In this document: in pieces, positions 5,052 to 60,505 of the stretch
Layout of the letters: the number at the start of each line of letters is the position of its first letter
How positions within the stretch are numbered: the first letter of the stretch is position 1
Assembly (NCBI GenBank): GCA_028534125.1
Contig: CM052816.1
Location: 83,268,001-83,332,000, forward strand
Reading direction: 5' to 3'
Origin: Lama glama
Taxonomy: Eukaryota
DNA: 64,000 nt
Notes under the pieces: model-generated
The model's input: the letters and a program-made list of their open reading frames with translations, nothing else
Databases searched by the model: none
What the model was told of the DNA's origin: nothing
Made by a program: the position numbers and the translations under genes

Positions 5052-7006
5052 TTTTCAATATTTGCAAAGCAATCTGATACACATTAACAAGTTGAAGATT
5101 AAAAATCATATGATCATCCCAATAGACACCGAAAATATCTTTTAATAAAATTTGACATCCATTTATGATATACACTCTCCGGAAAATGACTTTAAAAGGA
5201 ATATAACATAATAAATGCTATATATGACAAGCCCACAGGTAACATCATACTCAACAGTGAAAAACTGAAAACATTTCCTCTAAGATTAGGAACAAGACAA
5301 GGATGCTCACTCTCACCACTTTTATTCAACATAGTTTTAGAAGTCCTAGCTACAGCAGTCAGACAAGAATAAGAAATAAAATGAATTCAAATTGTAATGG
5401 AAGAAGTACAACTATCACTGTTTGCAGATGACGTGATAATATACCTAGAAAACCCGAAAGATGCCACACATACAAAAAAAAAAAAAAACTACTAGAGCTC
5501 ATCAGTGAATCTGGTAAAGTTGCAGGATACAAAATGAATATACAGAAATCTCTTACATTTCTATGTACTAACAATGAACTATCAGAAAGAGAAATTGAGG
5601 AAACAATCCCATTTACAATCACACCAAAAATAATAAAATATCTAGGAACAAACCTACCTAAGGAGTAAAAAGATCTGTACTTGGAAACTATACTAGGTTG
5701 ATGAAAGAAACTGAAGATGACACAAATAGATGGAAAGATATACTATATTTATGGATTGGAGAAATTAATACTGTTAAAATGTCAAAACTATTCAAGGCAA
5801 TCTACTGATTCAGTGCAATTCCTATTAAAATACCAAAGGCATTTTTCACAGAACTATAACAAGTAATTTTAAAATCTATATGGAAACACAAGAGATCCCA
5901 AATAGCCAAAACAATCTTGAGAAAGAAGAACAAAACTGGAGGAATCATGCTCCCTTACTTCACACTATACTACAAAGCTACAGTAAATAGGATGGTACTG
6001 GCACCAAAAAAAAAAAAAAAACAAATACATAAAACAATGGAACAGAATTGAGACCCATAAATAAACCCATGTACTTATGGTCAGTTAATCTATGGCAAAA
6101 GAAGCAAGAATATACAATGGAAAAAAAGACAGTCTCTTTAATAAGTAATGCTGGGAAAACTGGACAGCTACATGCAAAAGAATGAAATCAGAATATTCCT
6201 AACACCATATACAAAAATAAACTCATAATGGATTAAAAAGCTAAATGTAGGACCAGAAAATATAAAACTCTTAGAAGAGAACATAAGCAGAATCCTCTTT
6301 GACATAAATTATAGCAAAATTTTTATGTCTCTCTTAAAGCAAAGGAAATAAAAGCAAAAATAAATGATGGGATCTAATTAAACTTAAAAGCTTTTGCATA
6401 GCAAAGGAAACCATCAACAAAACAAAAAGCCAGCTTATGGGATGGGAAAGAATATTTGCAAATATGACCAATAAGGGGTTAACATTCAAATACATAAACA
6501 GCTCATACAATTCATCAAAAAACAAACAACCTGATTTTAAAAAATGGGCAGAAGACCTAAATAAACATGTTTCAAGGAAGATATACACATGACCAACAGG
6601 CACATGAAATGATGCCCAACATCATTATTTATCAGAGATATGCAAATCAAAACCACAATGAGATATCACCTCACACCTGACAGAATAGCTACCATCAAAA
6701 AGACCATACATAACAAATGTTGGTGAGGATGTGGAGAAAAAGGAACCCTCGTACACTGTTGGTGGGAATGTAAATTGGTGTAGCCACTACAGAAAAAAGT
6801 ATGGTGGTTTCTCAAAGAACTAAAAATAGAACTACTAAAAATAGAATATGACCCAGCAATTCCACTCCTGGGTATAAATCCAAAATAAATACACTAATTC
6901 AAAAAGATACATGCACATCAATGTTTATAGCAGCATTACTTACAATAGCCAAGATATAAAACAACCCAAGTTTCCATCAACAGATGAATTGATAAAGAAG
7001 GAGCAG

Positions 7007-7041
<35 letters not shown>

Positions 7042-7475
7042 TGCAATACTACTCAGCCACAAAAAAGAATGACAATTTGTCATTTTCAATATGGATGGAC
7101 TTGGAGAGTATTATGCTAACTGAAATAAGTTAGAGAAAGACAAATACGGTATGGTATCATTTATGTGTGGAAGCTAAACAATAAAACTAGTGGCTATAAC
7201 AAAAAAGAAACAGACTCAAAGATACAGAGAACAAACTAGTGATTACCAGTGGGGAGAATGAAGTGGGGAAGGGCATAATGGGAGTAGGGTGTTAGGAGCT
7301 GCAAACTACTATGTATAAAATAAATAAGCTACAAAGATATATAGCACAGGGAACATAGCCAATATTTTATAATAACTATAAATGGAATATAGCCTTTAAA
7401 AATTGTGAATCACTATGTTGCACACCTGAAACTTAAATAATATTGTACATCAGCTATACATCAATAACAAAGATT
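5052..7475 (+). mobile_element. Younger 5'-truncated LINE-1 (RT to 3'UTR) nested in the old L1
   Basis: Encodes [33 protein letters not shown] (~5275-5350) and LFADD (~5418-5432), then the ORF2 C-terminus and a 3'UTR ending cagctatacatcaataacaaa. Less decayed than the host L1. Confidence 0.92.
7010..7039. repeat. (CA)n microsatellite
   Basis: About 15 AC/CA units, seen directly inside the L1. Confidence 0.95.
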
Positions 7476-7484
7476 AAGAATAAA

Positions 7485-7760
7485 TGTTTAAGTTGTCCTT
7501 CAAAAACACTATCAGGAAGGTAAAACCATAATCCACAGAACAGAAGATGATATTTGCATTTATATATCTGATAAGGGGATAGTGTTCAAACTATATAAAG
7601 AACTCTTACAAATCAACAGTAAAAAGACAACCCAAGTGACACTGAGCTGAAAATTTGAATGGACTTTCTTCCAAAGAAAACTTATAAATGATCATTAATC
7701 ACATGAAAGAATGCTCAACATTTTTTGTCATTAGTGAAATACAAATCAAAACTAAAATGT
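7485..7760 (+). mobile_element. Continuation of the old LINE-1 ORF2 after the nested insertion
   Basis: ccttcaaaaacactatcaggaaggtaaaa resumes the L1 ORF2 consensus where 5020-5050 (aaattaataaatttagctgcaccaaaatt) stopped. Ends at caaatcaaaactaaaatg. Confidence 0.8.
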
Positions 7761-7769
7761 GAGTGAGCA

Positions 7770-8040
7770 TCACAAACAGTGGCAGATTAGAAAGCTCTAG
7801 GAGTTGGTCTCTCCACCGCAACAGCAATTAAGGTGAAAAAATTATAAGAATCAACTATTTTGGAACTCTAGAACCAATCAGACACTTACAGCAAACAAGG
7901 GAGTGCTTGAAGGGAGAACTTTCACAACTTTGATAAGAGAACAGAGTGTGCAAACCTGCTACCATTCTTCATTTCTCAGGTTTACTCTGGCCTTAATGAT
8001 GATGGCCCAAATTCTTAGAGTGGACAGTGTCAGAATGGAG
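7770..8040 (+). mobile_element. LINE-1 5'-end (L1M 5'UTR start) fragment
   Basis: gtggcagattag...agaatcaactattttggaactctaga...cttacagcaaacaagggagtgctt resembles recalled L1M 5'-end consensus. Confidence 0.55.
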
Positions 8041-8042
8041 AG

Positions 8043-8360
8043 GAAAAGACAAAATAAGCAATGGGAGAAAATATTTGCAAAGATGTGACCGACAAGGACT
8101 TAATTTTCAAAATATAAAAACAGCTCAAACAGCTCAATATCAAAACGAACCAACCAACCAATCAAAAATGAGCAGAAGACCTAAATAGACATTTTTCCAA
8201 AGAAGACATACAGATGGCCAACAGGCACATGAAAAGATGCTCAACATTGCTAATTATTATAGAAATGCAAATCAAATCTACAAGGAAGTATCACCTCACA
8301 CCAGTCAGAATGGCTGAATATTTACAAATAATAAATGCTGGAGAGGGTGTGGAGAAAAGT
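8043..8360 (+). mobile_element. LINE-1 ORF2 3' fragment
   Basis: Encodes [30 protein letters not shown] and HLTPVRMA motifs. Confidence 0.85.
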
Positions 8361-22412: not shown

Positions 22413-24190
22413 ACAAAGAGAGACAGTAAGAGGAACATCAGAACCACAAACCAAACAGAAAATAACAAAATGACAATAGTAAGTCCTTTCAATTATCTAT
22501 CAACAATTACTTGAAACATAAATGGATTAAAATGGCCAAACAGAAGATAAAGAATACTTTAAAGGATTAAAAATAAATAAGCTCAAACTGTGCAAAAACT
22601 CAATTTGGATTTAATGACACAAATAGGCTGAAAGTGAATAGATGGAAAAAGATATTGCAGGTAAACAGTAATTAAAAGGGAGAAGGGTGACTATAATAAG
22701 ATAAATCAACAGGAAGATAAAAAATACATATATATACACACACGCTATATATAACTGACACTAATGCACATTGTAGGAAAATTAAACGGTAAACCAATAT
22801 CCCTGATAAACATGGATTCAAAAATTCTCAACAAAATACTAGCAAACTGAATTCAACAGCACATTAATATACACCATGGCCAAGTGGGATTTATCTCTAG
22901 GATGCAAGAATGGTTCAACATACACAAAGCAATCAATGTGATGTACCACATTACCAGAAAATCAGATAACCACCTTGATGATGTAGAAAAAGCATCTGAA
23001 AAAATTCCACTCTTTCCTGATTAAAAAAACCCAACTCTCAGCAAATTAGGTGTAGAAGGAACTTATCTCAACATAATTAAGGTCACATATCAAAAGCTTA
23101 CAGCTAACCTTATACTCAGTGGCGAAAAACTGAAGGCTTTTCCTTTAAGATCTAGAACAACTGAAGTACACCCGCTCTCACCACTTCTATTCAACACAGC
23201 ACTAGAAGGACTAGCCAGAGTGATTACATAAGAAAATAAAAATCAGAATTGGAAAGGAAGAAGTAAAATTATTTCTCTTTGTATGTGACATGATCTCATA
23301 CACAGAAAACCCTTAAGACCACCAAAAAAAAAAAGTAGAATAAATGAATTCAGTAAAGTGTATACAAAACCAACATGGAGAATCCAGTATCATTTCTACA
23401 CACTAAGAGCAAACTGCCTGATGAGAGAAATCTAAGCAGACACAAATAAGTGGAAAAGTATTCTGTGTTTACGCATTGGAACTGCCACCTAATATAGCAA
23501 TCTCACTTCTGGTATTCAAAGGAATTGAAATCAGAATTTTGAAAAGGTATCTGAACTCCCTTGTTCATTTCGGCACTATTCACTGTAGCCAAGATAGGGA
23601 AACAACCTAAGTACCTATAGGTGGATGAATGTATAAAGAAAATGGAGTATGTGCATACAATAGTATATTAGTCAGCTTTAACAAAGAAGGAAATCCTGTC
23701 ACTTGCATCAGCGTGGATGATCCTGAAGGACATTATGCTAAGTTAGGTAAGCCAGAAACAGAAGGACAAATATACTTTATACCACTCAGGTGAGGATTCT
23801 AAGATAGTCAACTCACGGAAGCTGAGAGTAGAATAAGGATTGCCAGAGGCTGGAGGGAGAGGGGAAATAGGAAGCATTAGGTAAAGGATACAAAATTTCA
23901 ATTGTATGAGACCCAGAGATCCACTGAACATCATAGAGCCTGAGGTTTACTACTGTATTGCACACTTTACAATTTCTAAGAGGGTAGATCTTATGTTAAA
24001 TGTTCTTATCACAAAACAATGATACTGATAATAAAGACCTGGTGAGGAACCTTTTGGAAGTAATGGATATGTTTATAGCACAGACTGTGGTTATGGTTGC
24101 AGAGATGCACACTTGTCACCAAACTCACCAATGTGTATACATTGAATATGTACAGCTTTCGTATATAAGTCAAATACCAATAACAGGGTT
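22413..24190 (+). mobile_element. LINE-1 (L1MA10/L1MB-like 3' end) with large internal deletions
   Basis: ORF2 start at ~22470, RT segment PISLINMDSKILNKILAN at ~22794, then a jump to the C-terminus (~23480) and a 3'UTR gtagatcttatgttaa...ttttggaagtaatggatatgtttat. Confidence 0.85.
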
Positions 24191-25734: not shown

Positions 25735-26021
25735 ACTACCCTGGTCAATTAGGTAAGAACTGTTCACACATGCCTTTTAAGGACTGGAAAAAGGCCAAAT
25801 TGAGATGTGCCATAAGTATAAATAGCATACACAATTTTGCAGACTGGGTAGGAAGAAAGTAATATAAGTTGTTTCTTACACATATTTTATTCTGAGTACA
25901 TATCAAGGTGATAATATCTTTAACATACTGAATTAAATATATTAAGAAAATTAGTTTTACATGTTGTTTTTACTTTTTAATGTGGTTACATATGTGGCTT
26001 GCATGATACTGGACAGAGATG
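25735..26021 (+). mobile_element. MER33-like hAT-Charlie DNA transposon
   Basis: aattgagatgtgccataagtataaa ... tttttactttttaatgtggttac ... tggacagagatg matches recalled MER33. Confidence 0.7.
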
Positions 26022-26294
26022 ATGTAGAATATATCTGAATGCCTGACTCAGTGGGAGGACAGGAAAGGAAGAGGAAAATAGTTTCTCTCAAATTCTCAAG
26101 ACAAAGAGAAGATGAGGTTATTAACAAAGTTGATTGGATTCAGTCTTTTGAGAGAAGGTAGAGAATGCATATAGATACAGGAAGGCTTCTTGAATTATTG
26201 GGGGAAAGTCAAAGGTTTATAGCATTGTGTGTGTGATATACGCACCAGTGTTTCAATCGGTTGCTTTTATATGGTTTGGATCCAAGATGTGGGG

Positions 26295-26984
26295 TGTGGT
26301 GGGCATATCCTAGGATGGTCCCTCATGATTCCCATGCCCTAGTGTTCACACCTTTTATGATAACTTCCTTTGGTGTGGGTGGGATCTGTGACTTGCTTCT
26401 AGCTAACAGAGTATGATAAAGGTGGAGAGATTTTTGTCAAAGAAATTAAATTCCCCAATAAGTTCTAGTAAAATTAATCGGGTAAAAGCTGTTAAAAGAA
26501 GGGCCAGGACCTCCCTGAGGTGAGATACTGCCCTTGCTGGCTTGATGAAGTGGGTAGTCACGCCGAGGAAGACCTCTGGCCACTTGTGGGTGGCCTCTTG
26601 GAACATTTGTTTGCCTCTAAGACTTAAGAGTGGTCTCCAGCCTTGGGCCAGCAGAAAGCCAATGCCCTCAGTTACACAGTCACAAGAAAATGACCCCTCC
26701 CAACAATGCGAATGACCTTGGAAGTGGACTCTTTCCTAGTTGAGCCTCCAGATGACAGTGTTATCTGGCCAACAGCCTGTTGGTAACCTTTTGAAACCCT
26801 CAGCAGAGTAGCAGGTGAAGCCACATCCAGAATCCTGACCCACAGTGCAGCGTTGGTGGTATAGTGGCGAGCATAGCTGCCTTCCAGAATCCTGACCCAC
26901 AAATACTGTGAGATAGTAAGTTTAGATTGTTTAAAATCACCAAGTCTGTGCTCATCTGTAACACAGCAACAGAGAAATAAAACA
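26295..26984 (+). mobile_element. MaLR LTR (MLT1E-like) carrying a tRNA-fragment insertion
   Basis: Starts tgtggtgggca...gatggtccctcatgatt, includes gtgtgggtgggatctgtgacttgcttcta, and ends gtaacacagcaacagagaaataaaaca. Confidence 0.8.
26850..26886 (+). pseudogene. 5'-half tRNA-Gly(TCC) tailless retropseudogene
   Basis: gcgttggtggtatagtggcgagcatagctgccttcca matches 36 of the first 37 nt of mammalian tRNA-Gly-TCC as recalled. It ends in the anticodon loop (TCC at 26883-26885). Flanked by an exact 19-bp direct repeat tccagaatcctgacccaca (26826-26844, 26883-26901). No poly(A). Confidence 0.9.
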
Positions 26985-28739
26985 GGCTTTTCCACTTAAA
27001 CAATGTGGATGGTGCACATCAGAGATCTACAGAGCTGAGTTCTAGTCTGAGGTGTAGCGTTTAAATCTTTTTTTTAATCTACGCACTTCACTGCTGTAAA
27101 TCAATTTTCTCTTCTGCAAAAGAAAAAAACAAAACACTCTGTCCTAAATTAAATCTTTATGTCCAAATCCAACATTCTATTACTTTTTGATTAGTAAATA
27201 TTCAGAGAATGATTCTCAATGGTCATTTCCTATAACCTTCAGAGCCCCATTAAAACTTGGCATTTACCACTTTTCTGTAACTTTATACCATCCACAGACA
27301 CCGGCAACAGACATATAATGTACAAAATAGCGTGCACCAAAAGAGCAATAAATATACAATTAATATGATAAAAGTGTCATAAAAATCCATTATTTAATTT
27401 GTATTTGGAAGTTTGCCAACAATGACTTCTGAAGATCTTTTTGGAAAGAAAAATCTATTGGTGTTTTTTACTAATCTTCAATTTTTAAGTGTTTAAAAGC
27501 ACTTGAGCTTTCTCTGAGGTAAATAATACCTAACTGTGAAATGGAATATTGTGATAACAAATACATTTGACACAGATATAACTATCTGTGCCTTTCTAAA
27601 GCTACCCAGCAAAGCCTGTATCACGTGGTAAAGAAGACTGCTTCTCAGTTCTAGAAGTTGAGTCTGATTTTGAAGAGCGACAACTACCTTTCTTCGCTTC
27701 TTATAAATGTGTCAAATTATAGACGAGCCTACATTTTAATAGCAAACTTAATAGGAGGGTCTTACAGTAAAATGAACGCACATTTCATAAAAGCAACTGC
27801 AAGAGTTTTAGAATGCTTGACGGTAAATAATAAACTCATGATAGCAAGCATCTCGTTGGGTGGTGTAGAGCTCTATATTTATTCCTGTCAGAGTTAATAT
27901 TTCCATTGATGATCTACAAAAATGAATAAAGCAGCCCACTAAACCATATTTTCACATGAAATTACACTGAAGAAATGTGTGGAGGGAAAAGAGAAACAGG
28001 GTAAAACAAATAGACTGTGACAAGATCATAGCAAACCCCTCTAGTTGTTGACAGTGTGAAACTTCAATCTAAGAGTTCTTCACACAAATCAGAGTGGAAA
28101 TGAATGCCAATGGGGTCAGTGATGATTTCATTACTTGGAGATGAAATAAGGAAAGGCATGTGAGAAAGAAATATTGGAATGTGTCAAAAATGATTCATTA
28201 TTGCAGAAAAAGGTAACAACACAAACAGATTCAGGAAGAAACAGAAAGGAAACCCACCAGCATTTTTTTTTTTCTAACTTGAAAATGAACTGTGAAATTT
28301 GAAACAGTAGATTTGCAAAAATGAAATGGCCTAACATATGAATTTGTTTGGGTGGGAGAAAGAACCATGAGGCCCCAATCAGTCACAGCATCACTCCTTA
28401 TGTCGTGTGTTATATATAAACTAAAATAATAGCATCTTTTTTGTATTGCAGATGAGAACTGTTTCTGATAAGTATACAACATATTCAGTGCAAAGTCAGG
28501 TTCTTCTGGAAATAGGGTCTTAATGTTTATTCCTGTACTTGAAAGCAGGTATTGTATTTTTTTTCCTTGGGAAGTTAACATTTGTAATAAAGAGTTTCCT
28601 CTATCCTTCACAGGTATTTATAAAATAAAACTTTACAACAGCATTTGCTTTCTTCCCAACATTCCTCCATCTCACTGTGTTTTCTCCTATGAAACAAGAA
28701 CTTTTCAGGTGCAGTTCATGCATGAATGTTTGAACAGAG

Positions 28740-41789: not shown

Positions 41790-43384
41790 TATTCTGTTAT
41801 ACTTTCTGATTTCAAGCTATACTATAAAGACATAGCAATTGAACAGTATGATACTGGCATAAAAATAGACACACAGACAAATAAACAGACCAGAGAACCC
41901 AGAATTAAACCCCCACATATACAGTCAACTAATATTTGATGAGAGAACCAAGAACCTAGTGGGGAAAGGATAGTTTCTTCAACAAATGATGCTGGGAAAA
42001 CTGGACAAACATGCAGAAAAATAAAATTTGACCCCTGTATTACACCACTTACAAAAATTAACTCAAAATGCCAAAGACTTAAATGTAAGACCTAATATCA
42101 TAAAACTCCTAGGAGAAAATACAGAGAGTTGATCTTGGCTATGATTTTTTTGGATATGATACCAAAAGCACAAATAACAAAAGCAAAAATCAACAGGTGG
42201 AACTATATAAAACCTAAAATCTTCTGCACAGCCAAAGAAACAATCAACAAAATGAAAAGGCAACCTACATAATGGAAGAAAATATTTGCAAACCATATAT
42301 CAGATAATCTTATTTTCTCTTATTAATATCCAAAATATATAAAGGACTCATATGCTTCTACAACAACAAAGAAAAATTTTAATGGGCTGAAGAACTAAAT
42401 AGACATTTTTCCAAAGAAGACATCCAAATGGCCAACAGGTACATGAAAAGATGTTCAATATCATTAATCATCAGGGAAATGCAAATCAAAACCACAATGA
42501 CATCACCTCACACCTTATAGAATGGCTATCATCAAAATGACAAGAGATAACAAATGTTGGTAAGGATGTGGAGAAAAGGAAGCCCTTTTCTGCTGTTGGT
42601 GGGAATATAAACTAATTCAACCACTATGGAAAATAATATGGAGGTTCATCAAAAAATTAAATAGATCTACCATATGATCCAGCAGTTTCACTTCTGGGTA
42701 TATATCCAAAGGAAATGAAAACATGATATGAAAGATATGTCTGCATTCTCATGCTGAATGCAGCATTACTTACAATAGCAAAGATATGGAAACAATCTAA
42801 GTGTACCTCAATGGAAGTATGAATACCGCATCTTTGTGGTATATGTATGTATATATGTATACACACACGCACGTGTGCATATATACTTCAGCCATGAGAA
42901 AGAAGAACATCCTAATATTTGTGACACGGATGAATCTTGAGGACATTTTTCTAAGTAAAACAAGTCAGACAGAGAAGGATAAATACTGTGTAGTATCACT
43001 TATATATGAGATCTAAAAAAGTCAAACTTGTAAAACCAGAGAGTGGAATGGTGGTTAGCAGAAGATTAGGGTAAGGATGGAGGGAGGAGAAATAGGACTG
43101 ATGTTGCTTAAAGGTATAAACTTGCAACAAGTAATAAATAACTCGAAGAGATCTAGTGCACACTACAGTCAATACAGACCTCAATGTTGTATTACAGGCA
43201 TCAAACTTGCTAATAGACTAGATCTTAATTATTCCAACTTAAAAAAATTATATGATGTGATAGAGGTGCTAATTATTGCTACAATGGCAATCATATTACA
43301 ATATATAAATGTGTCAAATCAGTATGTTACTATACCTTAGATTTAAATAACGTATGTCAAATATATTTCAATAAAAAATAAAAT
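41790..43384 (+). mobile_element. 5'-truncated LINE-1 (L1MA9-like) with TSD
   Basis: ORF2 C-terminus plus 3'UTR and an A-rich tail. 11-bp TSD aaaaaccaaat at 41779-41789 and 43385-43395, preceded by ttt (L1 endonuclease TT|AAAA site). Confidence 0.92.
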
Positions 43385-47125: not shown

Positions 47126-47625
47126 NNNNNNNNNNNNNNNNNNNNNNNNNNNNNNNNNNNNNNNNNNNNNNNNNNNNNNNNNNNNNNNNNNNNNNNNNNN
47201 NNNNNNNNNNNNNNNNNNNNNNNNNNNNNNNNNNNNNNNNNNNNNNNNNNNNNNNNNNNNNNNNNNNNNNNNNNNNNNNNNNNNNNNNNNNNNNNNNNNN
47301 NNNNNNNNNNNNNNNNNNNNNNNNNNNNNNNNNNNNNNNNNNNNNNNNNNNNNNNNNNNNNNNNNNNNNNNNNNNNNNNNNNNNNNNNNNNNNNNNNNNN
47401 NNNNNNNNNNNNNNNNNNNNNNNNNNNNNNNNNNNNNNNNNNNNNNNNNNNNNNNNNNNNNNNNNNNNNNNNNNNNNNNNNNNNNNNNNNNNNNNNNNNN
47501 NNNNNNNNNNNNNNNNNNNNNNNNNNNNNNNNNNNNNNNNNNNNNNNNNNNNNNNNNNNNNNNNNNNNNNNNNNNNNNNNNNNNNNNNNNNNNNNNNNNN
47601 NNNNNNNNNNNNNNNNNNNNNNNNN
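47126..47625. other. Assembly gap (500 N)
   Basis: Run of N with a round length. Confidence 0.99.
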
Positions 47626-53979: not shown

Positions 53980-54075
53980 AGTTACATACCGTGTAAGAAG
54001 AAACAACATCCAGAATTAATTGGCTTAAGTTACATACCATGTAAGAAGAAACAACATCCAAAATTAATTGGCTTA
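53980..54075. repeat. 48-bp tandem duplication (2 copies)
   Basis: 53980-54027 and 54028-54075 are identical at 46/48 positions. Confidence 0.95.
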
Positions 54076-55511
54076 AGTGTTACTAAATGCAGTAATATTA
54101 GATTATTTCAAGATGATTCTTCTGGGTGCAGTATAGATACAGTATAATATAGTTTTCTGTACTAGCGTATATACCTCAGATTGAGGAAGATGGGTCAGAT
54201 TTATTTTGTGCCAAGTATTTGTATGAGGTTATGACAAACACAGGGTCATATATAGAGACATCATGTCTGGTGCCATGCTTAGCCTCCACTGGCAAGTCAA
54301 CTGAGGTTTAACAAGAGAGGGGTGGTAAGGAATAGTGGGGGTCGTTTAGCAAGGGTCAGTGGGAGATGTTCTGTTCTTCAGCCTCTATTACATTATACAG
54401 TAGTTATGATTTTGGATAACTGGAGAATAATATGAGCTTAGTTTAGGGACTTAGATATTTATTCCTCAATAATGTGGCAATTATTTTATCAAATAACAAA
54501 AGCATAACCCTGGGCTGTGGGCAGTGCTGAATTCAGGAAACAGAAGTGTGAGTCGTAAGTAGGAAAGACTGGGACCAGCGGAAGTAGCACCAATGAAATG
54601 TAATTTACCTACTAAGTCTGAGACTATTTGGAAAAGTGTTAGAACATCATGTTTCATATTGTAATAATAATAAATAACAAGTACCTAGAGATTGCAAATT
54701 AAGGAAGATGTGGTCTTTCCATGGAAAATGCATGTATAATCCCACTTACATAGCATTTAAATATGTTCTATGCTTTTTTTATACGTATTATGGTTCCCTT
54801 CACATTACATTTGGTGTTAAGCTATAAATTGTCAGTGAGAATTTTTCCTCTATGGACAAATTAGAAAAAAGATACTGATTTGTTTTTTACTTACCACTCA
54901 GATAATATTTATTAAACCTTGTATCTTTGTAAAGAAATAGCTATTTATAAAGCAATCTGTAGGGGATACAAAGGAAAATAAGATATTGTTTCTATTCTGT
55001 GACTTTGAAGCCTAGAATTTCAATACCCAAATTCTATTTTGGAGGGTACTCAAAACACAAATGTCTAAAATCATAAAGTATTAAAAAGTGTGAAATCTTG
55101 TTGAAATACAAAAATAGGAGAAAACCTGGATATGATGTTGCTAAACTAAAAATCCTTAAAATCTAAAATCAAAATTTGAAGATAAAGGAAGTATTCAGCA
55201 TAAATAGCAGTCTGTTTGCCAACAACCTGGCCTTTAACTTTACATCCTTTTTATAATATTAAATATCTTCTCTTTCCTATATGTGTGATTGGCTTCTGCT
55301 AGAGACAAAGATTTTTTTATGGTATAATGTAAAAATATGCCAACTTTATGGGAAAAGGAATTGAAAGTTAATATCCTACACAGCATATGATGTATCTAAG
55401 ACAGCCTATAATTTTTATAAAACAGACTTGCAATCAAGAATTGGAGAATGACATCAATCAGACTGTGAGTCTGGCTCCTTGATACCAGTGCAGATCTGTG
55501 TGGATACTTAC

Positions 55512-58339: not shown

Positions 58340-58876
58340 GTTCTGATGCAAAGGGCTGACATGAAAAGACAGGTAGAAGTGAAAGAAAAAACACAGAAAG
58401 GACATAAGTAGAAGCTTAAATTGAGTGACAGTACAGATGGAGAAAGTTATGGAGGGTTAGAAGTAGACATGGGAGATAGAAGTGATATAGAAATGATATA
58501 AAGAGTATCATTTATAACTAAAGATAGAAAATTAAGACAGGGTAAAATATGGAAATGATAGTTGCAGAATAAGTGTGGAAGCCAACAATCATCTGAGTGG
58601 TTTGTAATTTTAAAAAATCAATGACTATCAACTCAGCATACCTGACATTAAGACAGAAAGTAACTGCCTAAAAGGCCAAAATTAGGGTCACAGAACTTAA
58701 AATCTGAGCAGAAAATTATTTAACTCTTTTTCACTTTTTAAGAACATAGAACTAGAATTTTAGATTTGTTCATCCTTCTTCTCTGCATTTATCTATGAAA
58801 TAAAATGGATGCATTACTGGGTCAGGAAGTGAGTGGGTACATGAAAAAAAAATATGAAAAACATCATAGCAAAAAT

Positions 58877-60505
58877 AACAAATAATCCTAAAATTTATAT
58901 AGAATCACAAAATTGCCAGAGTTGCCAAAACAATACTGAAGAAAAAGAATGAAGCTGAAGGAATAACCCTCCTAGACTTCAGACAAATTACAGAGCTACA
59001 GTAATCAAAACAGTGTGGTACCGGCACAAAAACAGACATACGGATCAACAGAACAGAATAGAGAGCCCAGAAATAAACCCCACAGGCCTATGTCACTTAA
59101 TCTTCAACAAAGGGGGCAAGAATATACAATGGAAAAAAGACAATCTCTTCAGGAACTGGTGTTGGGAAAACTGGACAGCAGCATGTAAATCAATGAAGTT
59201 AGGACACTCCCTCACACCATACACAAAAATAAACTCAAATGCTTTAAAGACTTTAACATAACACAAAACACTATAAACCTCCTAGAAGAAAATCTAGGCA
59301 AAACATTATCTGACATAAATCTTAGCAATGTTCTCCTAGGGCAGTCCACCCAGGCAATGGAAATAAAAGCAAAAATAAACAAACGGGATCTAATTAAACT
59401 TATAAGCTTTTGCACAGCAAAGGAAATCATAAGCAAAACAAAAAGACAACCTATGGAATGGGGGAAAATATGTGCAAATGATACAACTGACAAAGGTTTA
59501 ATTTCCAGAATATACAAACAGCTCGTACAACCTAATAAAAAAACAAACAACCCAATCCAAAAATGGGCAGAAGACCTAAACAAGCAATTCTCCAATGAAG
59601 ATACACAAATGGCCAATAGGCACATGAAATAAAAAATGCTCAAAGTCACTAATTATCAGAGAAATGAAAATCAAAACTACAATGAAATAACACCTCACAT
59701 CAGTCAGAGTGGCCATCATTAAAGAGTCCACAAATGATAAATGCTGGAGAGGGTGTGGAGAAAATGGAACCCTCCTACACTGCTGATAGGAATGTAGTTT
59801 GGTGCAGCTGTTATGGGAAACAGCATGGAGATTCCTTTAAAAAACTACAAATAGACTTACCATATGATCCAGCAATCCCACTGCTGGGCACATATCTGGA
59901 GGGAACTCAAATTTGGAAAGATACATGCACCCCAATGTTCACAGCAGCACTATACACAATAGCCAAGATGTGGAAACAACCTAAATGTCCATGGACAGAT
60001 GACTGGATAAAGTAGTGGTATATCTATACAATGCAATACTACTCAGCCATAAAAGGGAATAAAATAATGCCATGTCCAGCAACATGGACAGACCTGGAGA
60101 TCGTCACTCTAAGTGAAGTAAGTCAGAAAGAGAAAGAAAAATATCATATGATATCACTTATATGTGGAATCTTTAAAAAAAAAAAAAGATAAAAGAAGAC
60201 ACTAATGGACTTATCTACAAAACTGAAACAGACTCACAGACATAGTAAACAAACTTATGGTTACTGGGGGAAAAGGGGAGGGAAGTGATAAATTGGGAGT
60301 TTAAGATGTGCGAATACTAACTACTATATATAAAACAGATAAAAAAGATTTCTTCTGTATAACACAGGGAACTATGTTCAATATCTTGTAGTAACCTATA
60401 ATGAAAAACAATATGAACACAATTATGTGTATGTATATGTATGACTGAAACATTAAGCTGTACACCAGAAATTGACACACTGCAACTGACTACTCTTCAA
60501 AAAAA
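58877..60505 (+). mobile_element. Youngest LINE-1 in the window, 5'-truncated (ORF2 C-terminus plus 3'UTR)
   Basis: ORFs 59013-59261, 59357-59632 and 59734-60015 are consecutive ORF2 pieces ([34 protein letters not shown]). The 3' end is tgtacaccagaaattgacac...actgactactcttcaaaaaaa. Confidence 0.95.

Follow-up and report, generated by a model that had tools for sequence, protein, structure and literature searches.

Structure of the inserted segment

Positions 26826..26901 of the window (the whole analysed stretch of 64,000 nucleotides) contain, on the forward strand, a 37-nt 5' half of tRNA-Gly(TCC) and five extra bases flanked by exact 19-nt repeats. The first repeat copy occupies positions 26826..26844, and the second one, positions 26883..26901; the identity between them is 100%. 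Exact repeats of this type located at most 100 nt apart are expected by chance about 1.6e-4 times over the whole window. The sole other such repeat belongs to a plain tandem duplication near position 53992, in a region (53981-54077) that is an ordinary head-to-tail duplication of about 48 nt with few differences. The window also includes an assembly gap of 500 N (47126-47625).

The tRNA segment (26850..26886, forward strand) corresponds to positions 1-37 of the genome's own tRNA-Gly(TCC) genes, called by ARAGORN in the same genome, with 36 of 37 bases identical (E 5.6e-14). The only mismatch is C for T at 26868 (tRNA position 19). The insert retains 37 of the 72 nt of the tRNA, starts at tRNA position 1 and ends one base past the anticodon. 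The five additional bases (26845..26849) are followed by tRNA positions 1-33, and positions 34-37, that is, the anticodon (34-36) and A37 at 26883..26886, are identical to the first four bases of the second repeat. Among the copies considered below, this locus (L009) is therefore recorded with the end at 33-37 and an overlap of 4. The insert lacks an A tail and runs directly into the target-site duplication (TSD). The first-pass annotation had described a Gly(TCC) 5' half between exact repeats, lacking poly(A) and sharing its last four bases with the TSD start, and all of this was confirmed. It had also given the TSD length as 19 bp; the two exact 19-nt repeats are indeed present, but given the four-base overlap the true duplication is 15-19 nt and not necessarily 19. 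A functional tRNA gene at the locus was rejected, as ARAGORN called no genes and Rfam yielded no tRNA match at E up to 10; the silence of these tools is in itself uninformative, since only half a tRNA is present.

Host repeat and order of events

The insert interrupts an old LTR-like dispersed repeat at about 26295..26984 of the forward strand, delineated by paralogue alignments and TG...CA ends. Presumably it is an MLT1-like element (ERVL-MaLR solo LTR). All genome searches were done in the 2.35-Gb assembly of the same genome, where the left flank of the insert has 43 matches. The longer paralogue alignments show 61-72% identity over 26297-26979; they begin with TG and end with CA. For 8 of 17 distinct host paralogues the alignments end at 26842-26845, that is, at the end of the first repeat. 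The left and right flanks were then aligned separately, which gave six usable paralogues out of 17, the other 11 being dropped for short or weak alignments. The spacing between the flanks in the usable ones equals 0, 0, 0, 0, −2 and 0 bases versus 57 in the window; in one of the dropped paralogues (L130, right-side score 19) the flanks lay 57 bases apart. The tRNA piece was absent from all 19 host paralogue loci searched for it, and sequence similar to the first TSD copy occurs once in each of the host paralogues L114, L120 and L128.

Since the usable paralogues lack the 57 bases, the insert and one repeat copy came later than the host. The same comparison implies that the host possessed the anticodon-pairing bases before the insertion. 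Thus the earlier claim of insertion into a pre-existing repeat holds in all six usable paralogues, each having one repeat copy and no insert, and the possibility raised with it, that the host family already carried both repeats and the sequence between them, is not borne out by them. Four other regions of the window (5174-8359, 22868-23800, 41811-43031 and 58875-60401) are mutually similar purine-skewed repeat pieces with 68-79% identity, which we take to be old LINE-1 fragments.

Age of the insertion

Judged by the divergence of the host paralogues, the insertion is far younger than its host. One substitution observed over 80 site-branches corresponds to an age of 6-8 My (95% range 0.1-46 My) if rates of 1.5-2.2e-9 per site per year are assumed. 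The perfect 19-mer TSD alone sets an upper bound of about 36-53 My at these rates. The first-pass annotation had concluded from a perfect TSD in a decayed host that the insertion was recent. The relative order stands, but the word "recent" is weakly founded, as 58 of the 74 well-scored TSDs in the set of copies described below are perfect and the bound is only <36-53 My. Of 24 public runs under four organism labels, 20 hold 0.77-1.00 of the words of region 26000-27800, the four best being possible sources; the insertion touches only about 5% of these words, so the shares say nothing of its presence or absence.

Family of Gly-TCC halves in the genome

Allowing up to one mismatch, the first 18 nt of tRNA-Gly(TCC) match 128 genomic sites, compared to none for the reversed control. 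We examined 99 of them, namely all 79 exact matches and 20 of the 49 with one mismatch. Exclusion of four intact genes, seven assembly duplicates and L092, where the match ends near base 21, left 87 copies, a set biased to young copies by the design of the search. All 87 reach C36 and none extends past position 39, so that the ends fall at 36-39. The TSD score is at least 8 in 84 of the 87 copies versus 38 of 1000 shuffled flank pairs, and at least 11 in 74 copies versus none of 1000; the TSD lengths are 8-23 nt. The overlap between the tRNA and the TSD is most commonly 2-3 nt (47 of 84 copies). A-rich TSDs of other copies could conceal a very short A tail. Over 1392 unconstrained sites the copies show 33 differences from the gene (2.4%).

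Just five genomic loci contain the 3' half of the tRNA, namely the four intact genes and one decayed full-length copy. The latter (L112, region of G000:C8:53627422) has a short leader and a T-run trailer resembling a Pol III terminator, seems to be flanked by an A-rich TSD, and is apparently a retrocopy of a full-length precursor. At another locus (L016, region of G000:C6:45443284) a Gly-TCC half sits inside a tRNA-Ala-like SINE called by ARAGORN; such nested cases could serve to order the halves relative to SINE waves. Several unplaced scaffolds (C92398, C102397, C55592, C105730, C1027909, C101286, C927915 and C106841) hold the same locus twice in opposite orientations, which suggests mirrored assembly artefacts inflating the copy counts.

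Leaders, templates and source genes

The 5-nt leader of the window (26845..26849, forward strand) is found exactly in 20 of the 87 independent copies versus 0.07 expected, and in five more with one base difference; it is absent from the four intact genes. Among the 81 copies with TSD score of at least 9, there are three or more extra 5' bases in 48, one or two in 15, and none in 18. Other leader classes exist as well: 15 copies match the upstream bases of an assembled gene over 3-6 bases, and 6 of 16 His copies have leaders of 18-21 nt resembling assembled His genes. The leader common to 20 of 87 copies indicates that the template was a precursor tRNA, which agrees with the earlier suggestion that the five bases are a pre-tRNA leader. 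From these upstream sequences we infer that the templates of the Gly-TCC and His halves were mostly precursor tRNAs.

The first-pass annotation had proposed to identify the source gene by the same five upstream bases and by C at position 19. Neither mark led to a gene. No intact Gly-TCC gene with this leader was found among the 79 exact 5' matches, the five 3'-half matches and 18 scanned tRNA-cluster stretches, and the leader precedes none of the four intact genes; an intact gene may be among the 29 one-mismatch 5' matches outside the set only if its 3' half differs at more than 2 of 24 bases. Three of the 87 copies, each with a different upstream sequence, have C at position 19, which all four intact genes lack; it is a private change and not a source marker. 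Misreading of modified U20 by the reverse transcriptase was rejected as its cause, since with 3 copies of 87, compared to 6 of 87 for T25, one for T34 and none for T29 and T33, it is indistinguishable from an ordinary mutation. The commonest non-gene change is T25C (six of 87: L033, L042, L068, L096, L099 and L102), whose sequence context we assume to be a T-to-C hot spot.

The commonest leader of the Gly-TCC halves thus has no assembled source gene. Similarly, the commonest leader of the Glu-CTC halves is seen in 4 of 9 halves and in 0 of 9 full-length loci, and the T5G variant of Gly-GCC, in 3 of 17 halves and in 0 of 13 full-length loci. At human 1q23.3, genes for Glu, Gly, Asp, Leu and Gly form a GC-rich tandem array, which mouse shares (PMC4041453). 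In the genome studied here, the region G000:C35:16020001-16040000 (L174, L175; GC 0.41-0.46) contains Asp, Gly-TCC, a decayed gene of Leu size, Gly-GCC and Asp, after which comes a gap of 500 N. An unassembled tandem tRNA array of the 1q23.3 type could plausibly, as a hypothesis, be the source of the orphan leaders and of the T5G variant. The leaders of half-copies also preserve the positions of Pol III start sites and hint at tRNA genes missing from the assembly.

Target sites and other isotypes

In the 81 Gly-TCC targets, the number of matches to the tRNA is 73 at C36, 73 at A37, 46 at A38, 11 at G39 and 7 at C40. Adenine at target position 39, where the tRNA has G, is seen in 56 of 81 targets, and the match at A38 (46 of 81) is no commoner (Fisher p 0.14). 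In the 33 copies with the overlap starting at C36, the two preceding target bases are T in 22 and 23 cases, respectively. The nick-side consensus of L1 has TT at the nick (PMC8565326), and the T-rich bases ahead of the C36 overlap therefore resemble the L1 nick side. This L1-like pattern, TT/ followed by an A-rich run, is seen across the family and is weak at the studied locus, where the nick position is ambiguous within the overlap.

Halves with TSDs were also found for His-GTG, Gly-GCC/CCC, Glu-CTC, Lys-CTT and Asp-GTC (loci L154-L171, L193-L209, L224-L238, L267-L269 and L143-L144), with ends mostly at 36-38. Such 5' halves account for 18 of 27 matches for His and 2 of 12 for Asp, and, among the best 40 matches in each case, for at least 25 for Gly-GCC, at least 20 for Glu and at least 13 for Lys. 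Seventeen copies of the Gly-GCC set were examined, four of them being Gly-CCC. All 16 His copies with a scored TSD end at G36 with a 2-nt overlap, and their targets match U35 in 15 cases, G36 in 13, and G34 and G37 in none. For Gly-GCC/CCC, 13 of 15 copies have their end at A37, and none of the 15 targets matches C38. A universal fixed cut after position 37, of the kind made at the 5' splice site of tRNA, was rejected on account of the 16 His copies. In L158, L160 and L163 (His) and in L228, L231, L232 and L233 (Glu), the tRNA end and the TSD are separated by extra dinucleotide repeats, which look like products of slippage or re-initiation as reverse transcription began.

Mechanism of insertion

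Whatever the details of priming, the locus is almost certainly a tailless retropseudogene. As for its origin, we lean towards internal priming on an uncut pre-tRNA-Gly(UCC), by target-primed reverse transcription in trans. LINE-1 ORF2p is the most likely enzyme, judging from the TSD length and the target bias. The template would be an intact nuclear pre-tRNA-Gly(UCC) with the 5-nt leader still attached. An endonuclease would nick the bottom strand inside the old repeat, and the freed 3' end would pair, in a codon-like manner, with the last two to four bases of loop positions 34-37, to which the target is complementary. Copying would proceed to the extreme 5' end of the transcript including the leader, as seen in the product. 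Then a second nick 15-19 nt away, followed by fill-in, would yield the observed duplication. The insert carries no box B and is most likely inert.

Priming through pairing at the anticodon loop, already proposed in the first-pass annotation, is supported by the targets, 73 of 81 of which match at C36 and as many at A37. The alternative is that the same L1 reaction used a pre-cut template, consisting of the nuclear leader and a half ending at 36-37, whose last two to four bases were caught by the nicked target; we regard it as possible, with perhaps one chance in a few. The ends at 36-39 are sharp and the match to the target is lost abruptly after 37 (after 36 for His), which is also expected from a real RNA 3' end. 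None of the 87 copies extends as far as the variable or T loop, and overlaps of 2-3 nt dominate; in vitro on poly(A), L1 needed four terminal matches for robust priming (PMC3649969). Another point against the favoured reading is that the studied locus fits the A-rich L1 consensus poorly. In favour of a pre-cut template, the His end at 36 is an RNase L site (bioRxiv 087106), the dinucleotide repeats at some His and Glu junctions resemble re-initiation at a template end, and pre-cut halves (1-37 nt) are preferred as an explanation of tRNA/LINE-1 chimeras (bioRxiv 2025.02.02.635956). However, no single named nuclease rule covers both His 36 and Gly 36-37. Angiogenin cuts between loop bases 3 and 4, and RNase L, at UN^N (bioRxiv 087106). 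Either enzyme would end a Gly(UCC) half at 34-35 and so could hardly explain the matches at C36 and A37. Isotype-dependent ends (G36 in 16 of 16 for His, A37 in 13 of 15 for Gly-GCC/CCC), on the other hand, would be predicted by pairing to an A/T-rich target.

The nature of the template bears on the same choice. Halves produced by RNase L and angiogenin come from mature cytoplasmic tRNA, whereas most Gly-TCC copies have extra 5' bases, unlike halves of mature tRNAs; three or more such bases in 48 of 81 copies and the long His leaders indicate nuclear precursors. The abundant tRNA halves are those of Gly-GCC and Glu-CTC. Yet Gly-TCC halves outnumber those of Gly-GCC and CCC both here (at least 87 versus at least 25 among partial matches, in searches of unequal design) and in human (67 versus 29). 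The link to abundant mature Gly 5' halves, made in the first-pass annotation, is doubtful in view of the 48 copies with three or more extra 5' bases. Internal priming is favoured, by default and from data on 5S and U2, by Noll 2015 (PMC5322556). On the whole, the data are explained slightly better by priming inside the anticodon loop of an intact pre-tRNA than by capture of a pre-cut half. There is also a modest chance that the halves preserve traces of a hitherto undescribed nuclear cleavage in the germ line, by which intron-less pre-tRNAs were cut just past the anticodon (at 36-37) before leader removal; LINE-1 would capture the resulting 3' end via two or three paired bases, and the leaders would identify a multi-copy tandem tRNA array, absent from the assembly, as the main source.

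Explanations other than the L1 reaction fare worse. An event not driven by the L1 endonuclease, such as an RNA/cDNA patch at a pre-existing staggered break or the action of another non-LTR element, might account for the lack of an A-rich target at this and several other loci, and reverse transcriptase can use pre-existing nicks (Noll 2015, PMC5322556). We consider it improbable, given the consistent duplications of 8-23 nt and the targets that are T-rich before the overlap and A-rich after it (A at position 39 in 56 of 81 targets, the tRNA base there being G); moreover, the class follows L1 activity across vertebrates (Noll 2015, PMC5322556). Still less credible is a DNA-level event or chance, in which a local tandem duplication acquired filler that resembles a tRNA gene by chance or was taken from one. 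Elsewhere the window does contain a plain tandem duplication whose exact repeat is long, but 87 copies with the same start and end in individual flanks, and with a common 5-nt leader and nothing common further upstream, effectively rule this origin out. Amplification from one master half-copy was likewise rejected, since there are several leader classes and no common downstream sequence.

Comparison with known systems

Tailless retropseudogenes of tRNA were reportedly described by Schmitz et al. in 2004. As catalogued by Noll 2015 (PMC5322556), the class lacks an A tail, is truncated in loops, has targets complementary to the last 2-18 nt and includes unprocessed tRNAs. The thresholds used there are a complete or almost complete 5' end (with at most 20 nt of precursor for tRNA), a 3' loss of at least 10 nt, a length of at least 30 nt, identity above 69% and a TSD of 8-35 nt. 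The studied locus starts at position 1 after a 5-nt leader, retains 37 of 72 nt with 36/37 identity, ends in the anticodon loop and has a 19-nt TSD with a 4-nt overlap and no tail, and thus belongs to this class, as the first-pass annotation had proposed. It is one of many such copies in the genome, and the class has already been catalogued in mammals. Table S2 of Noll 2015 (PMC5322556) lists 67 Gly-TCC, 29 other Gly and 9 His-GTG cases in human; by our hand count, 63 of the 67 Gly-TCC rows are 34-40 bases long. A literature search brought up no paper on tailless tRNA copies in camelids, with most subscription papers and bioRxiv supplements being outside its coverage.

The retropseudogenes of Noll 2015 (PMC5322556) resemble the studied one in being 5'-complete, loop-truncated, tail-less and flanked by TSDs. 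They are independent insertions in another genome, and their published tailless consensus is richer in A than the target found here. Leader classes and end points per isotype are measured here and are not found in the accessible part of that paper, although Schmitz 2004 may already describe them. The single locus is of little weight, being an inert copy and a possible presence/absence marker if orthologues differ. Some 130 natural events for several tRNA types with recoverable target sites, in contrast, bear on the opposing views, priming inside an intact RNA (Noll 2015, PMC5322556) and capture of a pre-cut half (bioRxiv 2025.02.02.635956).

The tRNA/LINE-1 chimeras share with the locus a tRNA segment of about positions 1-37 and the LINE-1 machinery (bioRxiv 2025.02.02.635956). 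They are fused to LINE-1, mostly in antisense orientation, whereas the locus stands alone between its TSDs. Like tRNA-derived SINEs, it has a tRNA head, TSDs and dependence on a LINE. Unlike them, it has no box B, body or tail, and its anticodon loop runs straight into its own TSD. Assignment of the locus to tRNA-derived SINEs was rejected, as only the 5' half is present, the tRNA 3' half is so rare in the genome, and there are several leader classes. The latter, matching different genes, mean that the halves, unlike SINEs, did not descend from one master element.
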